The notes: generated from the sequence alone by a model not told the origin. 64,000 nucleotides of DNA from Candidatus Omnitrophota bacterium (GCA_030650425.1 JAUSED010000003.1:7903-71902), one strand, 5' to 3'. Numbered from the stretch's first letter, positions 3,934 to 9,075 are shown. Made by a program: numbers and translations.

Positions 3934-4158
3934 ATGCAGTTATCCATACTTGATCCTAAAAAAGCCATCTGGCAGGGGATGAGTAAAGAAGTTAAATTGC
4001 CGACTGCCGACGGAGAAATGTGCGTGCTTGATTTCCACCAGTCTTTCGTGGTCAGGTTAGCCAGAGGCAGTATAATTTTTTCGGAGACGCGTATACCAAT
4101 AAAGGACGGTATTGCTTTTATGCGCTCAAACAGTTTGACTGTTTTCGCGCAGACGTAA
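3934..4158 (+). CDS. atpC: F-type ATP synthase epsilon subunit, N-terminal beta-sandwich domain only.
   Basis: Pattern L.I..P...IW.G....V.LPT.DGE..VL..H.....L..G.I.F matches the epsilon N-domain. At 74 aa it lacks the C-terminal helical hairpin. Confidence 0.6.
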   Translation: MQLSILDPKKAIWQGMSKEVKLPTADGEMCVLDFHQSFVVRLARGSIIFSETRIPIKDGIAFMRSNSLTVFAQT

Positions 4159-4167
4159 AATTAATCT

Positions 4168-4380
4168 ATGTCCACATTCGCATTAGCGCTGGTGATGATT
4201 CTAAGTACCGCCGGGCCTGCCGCGGTGATTGCCTTTGTAGGATATTCTGCGGTTAAATCAATAGCGCGTAACCCCTCCGCTTCCTCAAAAATATTCATCG
4301 TTATGATTCTGGCTTTTATTTTTTCAGAAGCAATCGCGATTTTAGCGCTTCTGATTTTATATAATCTTTTCGCCAAATAG
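4168..4380 (+). CDS. atpE: ATP synthase c subunit (proteolipid).
   Basis: Two-helix hairpin with a conserved loop (VKSIARNPSAS) and a carboxylate in helix 2 (FIFSEAIAILAL). Confidence 0.75.
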   Translation: MSTFALALVMILSTAGPAAVIAFVGYSAVKSIARNPSASSKIFIVMILAFIFSEAIAILALLILYNLFAK

Positions 4381-4393
4381 GAGCTCGGGTCTT

Positions 4394-5107
4394 ATGCTCA
4401 TCCAGCTTTTAGTCATCCAAGTAGTCACATTCATCGGTATTATCTTCTTAATGCGCTTTCTTTTCTCCCGGCATCTTAAAGTTGCCCTAGAGAGGCTGAA
4501 TACTTTACACGAGGAGAATCTGGCTAAAGAGGAAGAGCTTAATGAAGAGCTTAAGCGCGCCAAGGAAGAAAGCCATGCGCAAATAGAGAAGGGCAAGGAA
4601 GAAGCGGAGCTTATTGTTGAAGAGGCCAAGAAAGACGCGTTGCGGCTGCGTTCAGCGCTTGAGGAAGAAGCTAAGGCGCAGGCAGATAAAATTGTGGCTG
4701 GCGGGAAGATTGACGCAGAGAAACTGAAGGAAAAGTGCTCGCAAGATATACAGGCTCAAAGCGTCGAACTGGCTTCAAGGATGATTTCCGAGCTGTTGAT
4801 TGAGGCGGACAAAATCGCCCTGCAGTATCAATTTACCAATGAAATAATCGAAGAGATTGCCCGCCTGCCGAAAGAGCAGTTTAATGTCCAATCCAAAGAT
4901 ATAAAAGTCACCTCGAGTTTCCCGCTTCTAGATAGGCAGAGGGAAGAGCTTAAGAAGGCCTTGACTGAAAAGCTGGGGAGCGCGCCTGAAATAAAAGAGC
5001 AAATAGATGCCCGGCTTATCGGCGGCCTGATCGTCGAAATAGGCGGTATGGTTATCGACGGAACGTTAAGAAATAAACTGCAAAGAATCATTCCTTATTT
5101 GAAATAA
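4394..5107 (+). CDS. ATP synthase b subunit fused to a delta/OSCP-like C-terminal segment.
   Basis: N-terminal TM helix, long charged coiled coil, and a C-terminus (ARLIGGLIVEIGGMVIDGTLRNKLQRI) matching the delta-subunit C-terminal motif. Confidence 0.6.
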   Translation: MLIQLLVIQVVTFIGIIFLMRFLFSRHLKVALERLNTLHEENLAKEEELNEELKRAKEESHAQIEKGKEEAELIVEEAKKDALRLRSALEEEAKAQADKIVAGGKIDAEKLKEKCSQDIQAQSVELASRMISELLIEADKIALQYQFTNEIIEEIARLPKEQFNVQSKDIKVTSSFPLLDRQREELKKALTEKLGSAPEIKEQIDARLIGGLIVEIGGMVIDGTLRNKLQRIIPYLK

Positions 5108-5137
5108 GAAGCAAAAGAGACATACCGCAATTGTAGT

Positions 5138-5242
5138 AGGGGACACTTTCCAACCTCTGCAGAAAGGGACACTTTCCGTCAGGGCCTAACTAGAACTTCA
5201 AAAGGAAAATGTCCCTTTCTGACGCAAAGGAAAGTGTCCCCT
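5138..5242. repeat. Family-2 palindromic element as a nested double copy. Layout is A(5138-5151) A(5165-5177) loop A'(5204-5216) A'(5229-5242), with A = GGGGACACTTTCC.
   Basis: Read directly. The same stems and loop (gtcagggcctaactagaacttcaaaa) recur at 34171-34225 and, with the loop inverted, at 59843-59898. Confidence 0.85.
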
Positions 5243-6715: not shown

Positions 6716-6720
6716 AATAA

Positions 6721-7560
6721 ATGATCCCCATAGGCAAGTTAAAGACGAATATGCTGTTTAATAAAAACCTCGAGGATTTAATCGAGGTAATGAAACTGGC
6801 GGCGACTACGCAGTTTAACCAGTTTCGTTCGCGCCAAGAGCCTTCCGCGGATTTCATCCGTCAGCTCGACGAAGTGTTTGAGGTTTTATTTTCTTCAGGG
6901 ATCCCCAAAGATTTGCTTGTCTCTGAAGAATCCCTCCCGGCGCTCATCCTCTTGGTCTCCTCCGACGAAGGCTTCTTGGGGGAATTGAATTTTCTTTTGG
7001 TGAATAAACTTTTGGATATAAAAAGGCCGCAGGATACGGTTCTTTGTGTGGGTAATCAAGGCGCTAATTACCTGAAGGAAACTGAGATAAATTTTTCATT
7101 CCTTGATTCGCCGGGCGAAAAGATTGACAGCGAAAACCTGGGTAAAATATGTGATAGTATTTTCAAGCAATACCTGAAGCGCTCCGTCGGCAGGGTTTAT
7201 GTGATCTATTCGCGTTTTATCAATATCACCGCGCAGCAGATCGAACTGGAGAGCCTGCTTCCTTTAGAGAAGACATCTTCTTCCACTAAGCCTGTACGCG
7301 ATCTTTTGGTTGAGCCTTCCAGCCGCGCTGTAATTGAGGGATGGATTAAGCAATGGCTGAGTTTTCGGCTTTATCATATATTCTGGTCGAGTAAGTTGGC
7401 AGAATTTGCCGCGCGGATTATGCATCTTGAGGGAAGCGTACAGGAGTTAGGAAAAATAAACAGCCATTTGCGTATGGAGTATTTTAAGTATTTGCACGGG
7501 CTTTCCGATAAATCCATCCGCGAACTTACCGCGGCGCGCTTGTTGGAGAAGAATAAGTAA
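6721..7560 (+). CDS. atpG: F1 ATP synthase gamma subunit (divergent).
   Basis: Position between alpha and beta, N-terminal LEDLIEVMKLAATTQFNQFR helix, and size of about 279 aa. Confidence 0.6.
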   Translation: MIPIGKLKTNMLFNKNLEDLIEVMKLAATTQFNQFRSRQEPSADFIRQLDEVFEVLFSSGIPKDLLVSEESLPALILLVSSDEGFLGELNFLLVNKLLDIKRPQDTVLCVGNQGANYLKETEINFSFLDSPGEKIDSENLGKICDSIFKQYLKRSVGRVYVIYSRFINITAQQIELESLLPLEKTSSSTKPVRDLLVEPSSRAVIEGWIKQWLSFRLYHIFWSSKLAEFAARIMHLEGSVQELGKINSHLRMEYFKYLHGLSDKSIRELTAARLLEKNK

Positions 7561-7562
7561 AC

Positions 7563-7667
7563 CGAAACTGTTTCCATTGCAAAGCGGAAACTGTTTCCGA
7601 GCCAATCGGGAAACAGTTTCCCTCACAAGTTGGAAACAGTTTCCCTCACAAGTTGGAAACAGTTTCC
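7563..7667. repeat. REP array 2: five units starting at 7563, 7586, 7609, 7632 and 7655, between atpG and atpD.
   Basis: Exact 23-nt phasing. Linkers are attgcaaagc, gagccaatcg, ctcacaagtt and ctcacaagtt. Confidence 0.9.
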
Positions 7668-7674
7668 TTTGTAT

Positions 7675-9075
7675 ATGGAGAATTGCATAGCTAAAGTAAT
7701 CGCGGTTTACGGTTCGGTAGTGGACACGCAATTTTCAGCCGGCGCTCCGCTTCCGTCAATAGGCGCAACGCTAAAAGTCTGTATTCCTCCGGAAAAAGAG
7801 ATCGGCCTGCAGGTAGTCGAGCATCGCGGAAAGAATATCTGCCGCTGTATAGCCTTAGGGTTTACCTACGGAGTCGGCCGGAATATGCCGGTGGGTTTAG
7901 GAGGCCAAGAATTAGCCGTTCCCCGCGACCTGAGCCAGCTTTATGGAAGGGTATTGAACGCGCTGGCTAAGCCCATTGACCATAAAGGAGATTTGGATCT
8001 TAGTGATTCAGTACCATTAAAGAGTCTGGAGTGCGCGGTTCAGGCTGAAGTTAATTTGGACGCCGAAATAAAACCCGAAATTATTTATACCGGCATTAAG
8101 ATGATCGATTTACTTTTTCCCCTGCTCAAAGGTTCAAAAAGCGGGCTTTTAGGAGGGGCTGCCTGCGGTAAAACCGTGCTTATCCTTGAGATCATCCATA
8201 ATATCATCAGTTACCAGAGCGGAACCTGTATTTTTGCCGGAGTAGGAGAACGTATCCGCGAAGGGAACGAACTTTATCACGAATTTTCGCGCGCGGATTT
8301 GCTTAAACGTTCTATAATGATTTTTGGCCAAATGAACGAATCTCCGGGTATGCGTTTTGAAGCAGCGCATACCGCGGTCGCGTTGGCAGAACTTATGCTG
8401 CACCAAAGGAAAGATGTCCTTTTCTTTATGGATAATGTCTTCCGTTTTGTGCAGGCTGGAAGCGAGTTATCTATTCTCTTGGGCAGGATCCCTTCCGAGG
8501 GAGGATACCAATCTACCCTGACCAGTGAAATCAGCCAGCTGCATGAAAAAATCCGTTCGGAAAAAAACGCGAGTATCACCGCCATTGAAGCAGTATATGT
8601 GCCTGCCGACGATCTTACTGATCCGGCGGTAGTGGCGATTTTCGCGCATATGGATAATTTGATCGTGCTTTCGCGCTCACTGGTGCAGCGCGGGCTCTAT
8701 CCGGCGATTGATCCGCTGCAGTCATCAGCGAACTCCCTAAGCCCCTCTGTTGTGGGGAGAAGGCATTTTGATGCGGCGCAGGATGTCTTGCGCCATTTCC
8801 GTCGCTATGACGAGCTGGAGAGGATTGTTTCGATTATCGGTAAAGAGGAGCTCTCGGCGGATGAAAGGATCATTTTCGACCGGGCAAAAAAACTGCAAAA
8901 TTTTCTTTCCCAGCCATTTTTTACCGCTGAACTTTATACAGGAAGGCCGGGGGCTTATGTTTCTTTGGAGGATACGATTAGCGGGTGCGAGAAGATTATG
9001 AGCGGGGCATTGGATAAGCTGGATGAATCTAAGCTCTACTGTATAGGCAAACTGGAGAGTAAAAATGTCGAATAA
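7675..9075 (+). CDS. atpD: F1 ATP synthase beta subunit.
   Basis: P-loop [29 protein letters not shown], and DDLTDPAV. The track start 7630 is a TTG inside the REP array; ATG 7675 is preferred. Confidence 0.85.

Follow-up and report, generated by a model that had tools for sequence, protein, structure and literature searches.

An F-type ATPase cluster without a nearby a subunit in a pilus operon of Candidatus Omnitrophota: a candidate non-chemiosmotic motor

Background

What role does a rotary ATPase play inside a pilus operon? This question is raised, and sharpened, by a six-gene F-type ATPase cluster in a 64,000-nucleotide stretch of DNA from a Candidatus Omnitrophota bacterium (GCA_030650425.1, JAUSED010000003.1:7903-71902; hereafter, we refer to the whole stretch as the window). 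The source contig is 359 kb long and belongs to an Omnitrophota metagenome-assembled genome (MAG) with locus tags Q7K98_; its proteins are entered in GenBank under Candidatus Omnitrophota bacterium. Open reading frame (ORF) calls and Pfam/NCBIfam matches place all six genes on the + strand at positions 3934-9075, in the order epsilon, c, fused b-delta, alpha, gamma and beta, just as an earlier annotation of this DNA (hereafter, the original prediction) had described. That prediction took the locus for a specialised, non-canonical F-type ATPase rather than a standard atp operon, which our analysis upholds, and entertained a likeness to the N-ATPases, most of which we have to give up.

The kind of locus is already known. 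Seymour et al. 2023 (Nat Microbiol, PMC10066038) reported a divergent Omnitrophota alpha subunit beside PilB/PilC/PilMNO, described it as part of a “symbiotic”, non-respiratory F-type ATPase, typed it as 2/3 by analogy with Mycoplasma and proposed a role in attachment to, or motility on, host cells. In their survey, the ATPase and the type IVa pilus (T4aP) genes lay within 10 kb of each other in 57 of 66 contigs, with every class of the phylum represented. The window agrees with that description in its phylum, in a divergent alpha outside the respiratory clade and in pilus adjacency, no more than 10 kb separating its ATPase from the T4aP genes, and its membership in the pilus-linked family is near certain. 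The accessible portions of the paper present an alpha/beta phylogeny and the co-location; in them we found no mention of the subunit set, the missing a subunit, the c variants, the trimmed epsilon, delta and alpha N-terminus, or the link between GGDEF and MshEN domains. In the accessible literature we likewise found no description of the exact subunit inventory, of apparent loss of a with retention of the c-ring, of repeated loss of the ion-binding residue with catalysis kept, of a V-type-like fused stalk, or of wiring to cyclic di-GMP (c-di-GMP).

In the present manuscript, we argue that the cluster encodes an ATP-hydrolysing, non-chemiosmotic F-type motor that lacks an ion path and serves a pilus or secretion system, a reading to which we assign a probability of roughly 0.6. 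It is made probable by the absence of a nearby a subunit, the loss of the c carboxylate in related species, the intact catalytic residues, the trimmed epsilon and stalk, the divergence of the subunits, the synteny with pilus genes and the occurrence of V/A-type ATPases in the phylum, on which chemiosmosis in Omnitrophota is held to rely (PMC8542988; 2026 preprint).

No a subunit is found near the cluster

We searched for the a subunit with a hidden Markov model (HMM) trained on 14 such subunits from canonical loci; in 28 canonical loci, which served as the control, it gives E-values of 1e-29 to 1e-107. Neither the 64-kb window nor 49 Omnitrophota loci with 10 kb on either side (~700 kb) contain a match (best E 0.14), in agreement with the original prediction that the locus holds no atpB. 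Upstream of the GGDEF gene, where that prediction had allowed for a conventional atpB, we find genes for an MA-family peptidase and a small membrane protein, preceded by the terminal part of a very large ORF. A hydropathy scan reveals no cryptic polytopic protein in the conserved gene block around the cluster; the polytopic proteins are PilC and a non-conserved PMT_2 protein only.

From these searches we infer that the a subunit is absent genome-wide. Against this stands the main alternative, that of an ordinary chemiosmotic F1Fo ATP synthase or reversible H+ pump, its atpB located elsewhere and its position among pilus genes reflecting operon shuffling or co-regulation, which we consider unlikely. 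Every subunit but a is present, as such an enzyme would require, and bacteria often have their atp operon split. In such cases, however, atpB normally stays beside atpE, whereas here c is in the operon while a is missing at 49 of 49 loci. Among the rows listed in the KEGG Orthology (KO) table of Seymour et al. (PMC10066038), two species carry K02111: one has a full F-type set, and the other has the alpha and beta KOs only, without K02108, which speaks against an atpB elsewhere.

Loss of the c-ring carboxylate in related species

By alignment, the c subunit of the window has an R34-N35-P36 loop and a carboxylate, E54, encoded at 4327-4329. Inspection of its ion ligands, which the original prediction had proposed as a check, gave no Na+ signature: in place of the motif ESTxxY the protein reads E54-A-I-A-I-L, and helix 1 has neither an acidic residue nor Gln at the ligand position. 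The RNP loop is invariant in the window clade.

The carboxylate is exchanged in eight related species (Gln in six, Phe in one, Gly in one), and we found no other membrane-embedded acidic residue in these c subunits. On a neighbor-joining (NJ) tree of alpha, the Gln and Phe variants make up one subclade, which retains the linkage to type IV pilus (T4P) genes and the same operon, and the Gly variant represents an independent loss beside a Glu-bearing sister. Mutagenesis of c D61/E has established that a ring without the carboxylate is unable to translocate ions, so that at least the carboxylate-less subclade is not chemiosmotic. This fits poorly with a conventional synthase whose atpB lies elsewhere, as the carboxylate, or the whole c gene, is gone from a sister subclade of like architecture.

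Two loci depart further from the common arrangement. In one (L045:4958-14261), c and epsilon are both missing, and b/delta-alpha-gamma-beta comes immediately after genes for an ExeA-like AAA protein, a secretin (PF00263) and a TPR coiled-coil protein. The other (L047), on the complete 1.8-Mb chromosome CP070807.1, has b/delta-alpha-gamma-beta preceded by c, here a Gln variant; epsilon is missing, and no pilus genes lie within 10 kb.

A conserved catalytic head on a divergent branch

Alpha scores 535 bits against TIGR00962 (cut-off 484) and beta 499 bits against TIGR01039 (cut-off 463). The alpha P-loop (GDRQIGKTS) and Arg finger (SVSR) are kept across the family in our alignment; both are intact in every locus with the region present, as are the P-loop, the catalytic Glu (GER-REG) and Walker B of beta, and the carboxylate-less subclade is no exception. 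Purifying selection acts on the catalytic machinery wherever a locus contains the region.

It could still be asked whether the cluster is what is left of an atp operon that is decaying and no longer functions, given the lost a subunit, the truncated epsilon and delta, the repeats inside the operon and the relative without c and epsilon. We find this the least credible of the readings considered here: six intact ORFs are present in ~45 species, the catalytic motifs are invariant, and gene order and neighbors are kept down to ~45% alpha identity.

The original prediction that the F1 subunits are strongly diverged holds for alpha and beta, which are 40-43% identical to canonical F1 subunits, compared to 56-67% among canonical subunits of different phyla. 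The same prediction described gamma as barely recognisable, which was an overstatement: gamma matches PF00231 (E 1e-32); against the NCBIfam gamma models it falls far under the cut-offs. The divergence of alpha and beta is accelerated.

Relatives were taken from a one-genome-per-species collection, in which the best 49 loci come from Omnitrophota or from MAGs that go under Planctomycetes or Parcubacteria but contain this cluster, and that we count as mislabelled PVC MAGs; beyond these, alpha identity falls to 43-46% and the hits are to ordinary bacteria. The closest alpha, at 87% identity, is from a Candidatus Omnitrophota MAG, and identity within the family goes down to ~45%. The order epsilon-c-b/delta-alpha-gamma-beta recurs in nearly all Omnitrophota loci, ~45 in number. 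On the NJ tree, in which six canonical alphas and no Omnitrophota “respiratory” sequences were included, the Omnitrophota alphas form a single clade with a long stem, apart from the canonical six.

Two apparent fusions came up among the loci compared. That of alpha with gamma in one relative (L027) was rejected as an artefact of an N-masked stretch. In six canonical loci of Oscillospiraceae/Clostridiales (L051, L054, L056, L059, L066 and L079), the alpha-containing stop-to-stop ORF is ~747 aa long and begins ~240 codons upstream, possibly because delta and alpha lie in one frame without a stop, as a delta-alpha fusion.

A trimmed epsilon and a remodelled stalk

Epsilon stands first in the cluster, has 74 aa and lacks the regulatory C-terminal helices, all as originally predicted; it matches PF02823 only, consists of the N-terminal beta-sandwich, and is likewise short in 43 of 43 homologues. 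That b and delta are one polypeptide is also confirmed, with PF00430 and PF00213 both falling on a product of 237 aa. Its AlphaFold2 (AF2) model (predicted local distance difference test, pLDDT, 89) comprises a helix at 2-134 (133 residues), a second helix at 137-157 and an alpha/beta domain at 169-236. In this predicted model, the last ~70 residues can be laid over the C-terminal domains of delta/OSCP at 1.5-2 A, whereas the protein over its whole length is shaped like the peripheral-stalk subunits of V-ATPases. The N-terminal helical bundle of delta is absent from the fused stalk, and alpha is missing the ~20 N-terminal residues that normally bind the delta N-terminal domain, its alignments to chains in the PDB beginning at chain residue 22-31. 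The stalk is remodelled, with the delta N-terminal domain and the alpha N-terminal helix both gone. For an ordinary synthase with a distant atpB, the trimming of epsilon, delta and the alpha N-terminus and the much faster evolution of alpha and beta are further difficulties.

Embedding in a pilus operon

The cluster is part of a conserved co-directional block that runs from a large surface ORF through mem236 (the small membrane protein mentioned above), the MA peptidase and the receiver-GGDEF protein to the ATPase, and on to PilB/GspE, PilC/GspF, PilMN, PilO and pseudopilins, a context that the original prediction had missed. PilB/GspE follows next after beta in all 36 loci where both are visible, and in 7 of the 36 the beta stop and the PilB start overlap, the window (11 nt) being among them. 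This phylum-wide embedding, stop/start overlap included, is again not what a synthase with a separately located atpB would lead one to expect. Searches with PilB found no PilT paralogue in the 64-kb window or the loci scanned, and searches with alpha and beta found no further homologue, and so no V-type A/B subunit, in the 64-kb window.

The block also contains likely signaling components. In the window clade, the receiver-GGDEF gene is kept just upstream of epsilon, and PilB/GspE carries an MshEN c-di-GMP-binding domain (region 9065-9500). On account of these two domains, a GGDEF cyclase and an MshEN domain, the operon holds a likely source and a likely sensor of c-di-GMP: the GGDEF response regulator would be the producer, and PilB would bind the product through its MshEN domain. 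Judging by this domain content, c-di-GMP probably controls the whole ATPase-pilus unit.

Two neighbors upstream deserve mention. Homologues of the large ORF, such as that at L030:2-6979, reach at least 1,400-2,300 aa, most of them being cut off by the edge of the locus; the copy at L036:321-6737 has 2,139 aa and two Laminin_G_3 (ConA-like lectin) domains. The ORF may be related to the giant or large surface proteins of Omnitrophota in the literature. The mem236 protein has no Pfam or NCBIfam match and no fold match in the PDB at E<0.05. Its 229 database homologues, to the extent that the 120 listed are named, are all hypothetical proteins of Omnitrophota/Omnitrophica MAGs, and in the deepest clade, too, its gene lies a short way upstream of the ATPase. 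In an AF2 model (pLDDT 85), a signal peptide is followed by an Ig-like sandwich, by three helices and by a C-terminal transmembrane (TM) helix. We weighed it as a possible replacement stator or channel; its TM helix is a single one, and its Ig-like domain is predicted to be periplasmic.

Proposed function

The non-chemiosmotic motor that we favor would work as follows. An alpha3beta3 head would be held by a single membrane-anchored stalk of b fused to the delta C-terminal domain, and ATP hydrolysis would turn gamma-epsilon, with the attached c-ring, against this anchored head. The output would be used by, or coordinated with, the type IV pilus or type II secretion system (T2SS)-like machine and the large lectin-domain surface protein. 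We infer both ATP hydrolysis as the working direction and the physical or functional coupling to the pilus. A narrower proposal, that an F1Fo without an ion channel retains its c-ring, its central stalk and a single V-type-like stalk purely to act as a membrane-anchored rotary motor and is itself a working component of a pilus/T2SS-like machine for predation or attachment, we put forward tentatively and with some doubt; its output might be, as examples, torque, retraction or an export function.

Several observations weigh against a motor without an ion path. The absence of a is established for ~20 kb around each locus only. Within the window clade, E54 is invariant over ~33 species and the whole c subunit is strongly conserved, which is the pattern to be expected of a ring in which ion binding is still important, and so of an enzyme that has its a subunit somewhere; together with the invariant RNP loop, it also counts in favor of the synthase with atpB elsewhere. 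Alpha and beta exceed the NCBI equivalog cut-offs for genuine F0F1 subunits, which favors the same alternative. The co-location of ATPase and pilus genes may reflect co-regulation only. Finally, the V/A-type ATPase that would take over chemiosmosis is known for Omnitrophota generally, not from this particular MAG.

Organization of the locus and its repeats

The features of the window that concern the locus are collected in Table 1. The six ATPase genes have operon-like spacing. The stop codon of the GGDEF gene directly abuts the epsilon start (TAA ATG, 3931-3936), and the gaps within the cluster are 9 nt between epsilon and c, 13 nt between c and b-delta and 5 nt between alpha and gamma. Only two gaps are long, those between b-delta and alpha and between gamma and beta, and each is occupied by repeats.

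Table 1. Features of the locus, in window coordinates
Feature	Position	Strand	Evidence and remarks
Very large ORF, C-terminal end (last 440 codons)	1..1358	+	Cut by the window start; opens the conserved block
mem236 membrane protein	1515..2225	+	Omnitrophota-only; upstream of the ATPase in ~35 loci
Peptidase_MA_2 family protein, N-terminal signal-like segment	2285..3070	+	PF13485, E 1.5e-10; syntenic in most relatives
Response-regulator receiver + GGDEF diguanylate cyclase	3043..3933	+	PF00072 + PF00990
F1 epsilon, 74 aa	3934..4158	+	PF02823, residues 1-74, E 1e-11; GenBank MDO8661735
Fo c subunit, 70 aa	4168..4380	+	PF00137; two TM helices
b fused to delta C-terminal domain, 237 aa	4394..5107	+	PF00430 residues 6-135, PF00213/OSCP residues 74-232
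Family-2 repeat element, nested inverted repeat	5140..5240	no strand	b-delta/alpha gap
F1 alpha, 486 aa	5255..6715	+	TIGR00962 above cut-off; identical to MDO8661738
F1 gamma, 279 aa	6721..7560	+	PF00231, E 1.3e-32
Family-1 repeat array	7563..7667	no strand	gamma/beta gap
F1 beta, 466 aa	7675..9075	+	TIGR01039 above cut-off; identical to MDO8661740
PilB/GspE-type assembly ATPase with N-terminal MshEN	9065..10678	+	PF00437 + PF05157; NF053729 55.7 > 38
PilC/GspF, PilM-PilN fusion, PilO/GspM-like, three minor pseudopilins (GspI/J/K-like)	10812..16290	+	Domain matches, synteny

The starts of alpha and beta were corrected to ATG 5255 instead of GTG 5234 and to ATG 7675 instead of TTG 7630. The upstream starts of both ORFs lie within repeats, and the shorter proteins match MDO8661738 and MDO8661740 exactly. 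Automatic annotation mishandles the cluster: in GenBank, epsilon (MDO8661735) goes by the name “hypothetical protein” and b-delta by that of “F1 subunit delta”, and the Logan gene call has an antisense ORF (4161-4376, minus) in place of the c gene. The exact c protein has no match in a collection of 15 billion proteins.

The original prediction correctly placed repeats of two families, 2 and 1, in the b-delta/alpha and gamma/beta gaps, respectively. The family-2 repeat, GGGACACTTTCC, is present as two direct and two inverted copies; folded as RNA, the stretch 5108-5254 reaches -58 kcal/mol (z = -6.6), with a ~100-nt hairpin within the operon that might affect transcript processing or stability. 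Nested inverted pairs of the same repeat (GGGACACTTTCC) also occur at 34173-34223 and 59847-59897. The family-1 unit is a 13-nt near-palindrome, GGAAACAGTTTCC / GGAAACTGTTTCC, found in either orientation with a strict 23-bp period, and the gamma/beta gap contains five such units. The window as a whole has 65 matches, versus 0.1 expected. Family-1 arrays of 3-5 units, always intergenic, lie at 1361-1465, 7563-7667, 10680-10784, 13967-14025, 18378-18436, 18978-19036, 22590-22694, 27399-27457 and 44322-44380.

The exact family-1 motif is missing from all 81 fetched loci, the 87%-identical relative included, and family 1 is for this reason a recent lineage-specific insertion; the repeats are incidental to the ATPase. 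Family 1 could be an array of protein-binding sites, or an element recently spread in the genome that resembles a repetitive extragenic palindromic (REP) sequence or a miniature inverted-repeat transposable element (MITE). Rfam recognizes no known RNA family in the repeats, its sole matches in the window being two divergently oriented tRNA genes at 50208-50290 (-) and 50359-50431 (+). The rest of the window, at 20-42 kb, encodes ordinary metabolism (fatty-acid synthesis, salvage, dehydrogenases).

Implications

If the enzyme truly lacks a, it amounts to a natural experiment on an F-type rotary ATPase that no longer depends on an ion gradient: such an enzyme retains head, rotor and ring, gives up its regulatory parts and can dispense with the ion-binding site. 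Should the narrower proposal above be true, this would be the first known rotary ATPase with a c-ring yet, in one subclade, no ion-binding site, and a present-day counterpart of the ancient event by which type III secretion and flagellar export acquired a rotary ATPase. The strict operon linkage suggests a new way to power or control a pilus or secretion system in ultra-small bacteria that are putatively predatory or host-dependent, and provides a modern analogue for the origin of the type III secretion ATPase complex from a rotary ATPase.

There is also a practical consequence. KO surveys tally these alpha and beta subunits as “ATP synthase” or “incomplete F1Fo” (2026 preprint), and c, gamma and epsilon are under-counted; the same preprint lists alpha/beta in 125 of 176 complete genomes and gamma in only 30, a gap that we attribute to the divergence seen here, and gives no count for a. 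With automatic annotation also mislabelling epsilon, c and b-delta, the energy metabolism of Omnitrophota is open to misreading.

Comparison with known rotary ATPases

Canonical F1Fo (atpBEFHAGDC) and the window cluster share the order c-b-delta-alpha-gamma-beta. Both have gamma, the beta-sandwich of epsilon and the residues needed for catalysis, as well as a c hairpin with the RNP loop and, in the window clade, the carboxylate. The canonical enzyme has a nearby a subunit (PF00119), whose essential membrane Arg takes part in the ion path formed with the c-ring, two epsilon C-terminal helices, a separate full-length delta and the alpha N-terminal helix, all of which the window locus lacks. In the window, moreover, epsilon is at the front, the delta C-terminal domain is fused to b and the cluster sits inside a pilus operon.

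The N-ATPases (Dibrova et al. 2010, PMC2881411) have the order atpDCQRBEFAG, with an a subunit, AtpQ, AtpR and a Na+-binding c that carries ESTxxY and an extra Glu; they stand beside a main ATPase and are thought not to make ATP. That the window cluster is a Na+ (or H+) export pump of this sort was suggested by the original prediction, and we now think it highly improbable. It too would possibly be a second ATPase, beside a V/A-type enzyme (known from the phylum in general), and its stalk offers one structural resemblance, the only one to hold: AtpF_N is also a b subunit that carries the C-terminal part of delta, and TIGR03321 aligns end to end (E 2e-13). The other features fail to agree. The gene order and the sequence clade differ, no a was found, and there is no AtpQ/AtpR-like ORF in 3934-9075, where we see no extra + strand ORF of at least 50 aa; the c subunit is without ESTxxY and the second Glu. 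The NCBIfam “alternate F1F0” models remain far under their cut-offs (alpha 494 against 750, beta 460 against 752, b 51 against 225) and also score under the canonical models.

The Mycoplasma Type 2/3 clusters (Beven et al. 2012, PMC3369863) consist of seven genes, among which c, b and delta are missing. Their membrane sector, “X0”, is unrelated, and they carry three unrelated proteins, 3-TM and 12-TM ones included. As a candidate counterpart of the 12-TM protein we considered the PMT_2 protein of the window (12 TM, 16780-18399), which was rejected, being of a glycosyltransferase family and having no homologue in related loci. Points of likeness are the presence of an additional F1-type ATPase in a bacterium that is reduced and depends on a host, and the proposal that it drives a surface or motility function rather than ATP synthesis, as in the gliding motor of M. 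mobile. The alpha phylogeny of Seymour et al. (PMC10066038) places alpha in this group, and both are second, non-respiratory F1-type ATPases of host-dependent bacteria. Even so, it is very unlikely that the window cluster belongs to the family and works like the M. mobile motor, although somewhat less so than that it is an N-ATPase. The window cluster retains c and b-delta; the family models miss their cut-offs (MMOB1660 401 against 600, MSC_0619 327 against 520, MMOB1670 395 against 850, MSC_0618 367 against 570), and all of them score under the canonical atpA/atpD models, which are the highest (553 and 499 bits). In addition, the PDB matches of alpha that are listed (60 of the 69 at E <= 1e-30) are, in 60 of 60 cases, named ATP synthase or F1-ATPase alpha chains. 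The HMM scores thus do not bear out the published type 2/3 grouping, which may be due to long-branch attraction.

The last comparison, with FliH-FliI-FliJ (SctL-SctN-SctO), is one of analogy only. HMMs for FliI/SctN give 170-190 bits, below their cut-offs of 380-620. FliI is a homohexamer without a c-ring and has a type III secretion system (T3SS) as its partner, whereas the window ATPase goes with a type IV filament system. FliH has been likened to a b-delta fusion (Pallen et al. 2006, as cited), and in both cases a rotary-ATPase-derived complex has been recruited, or in the window would have been recruited, to a surface-filament or secretion machine.

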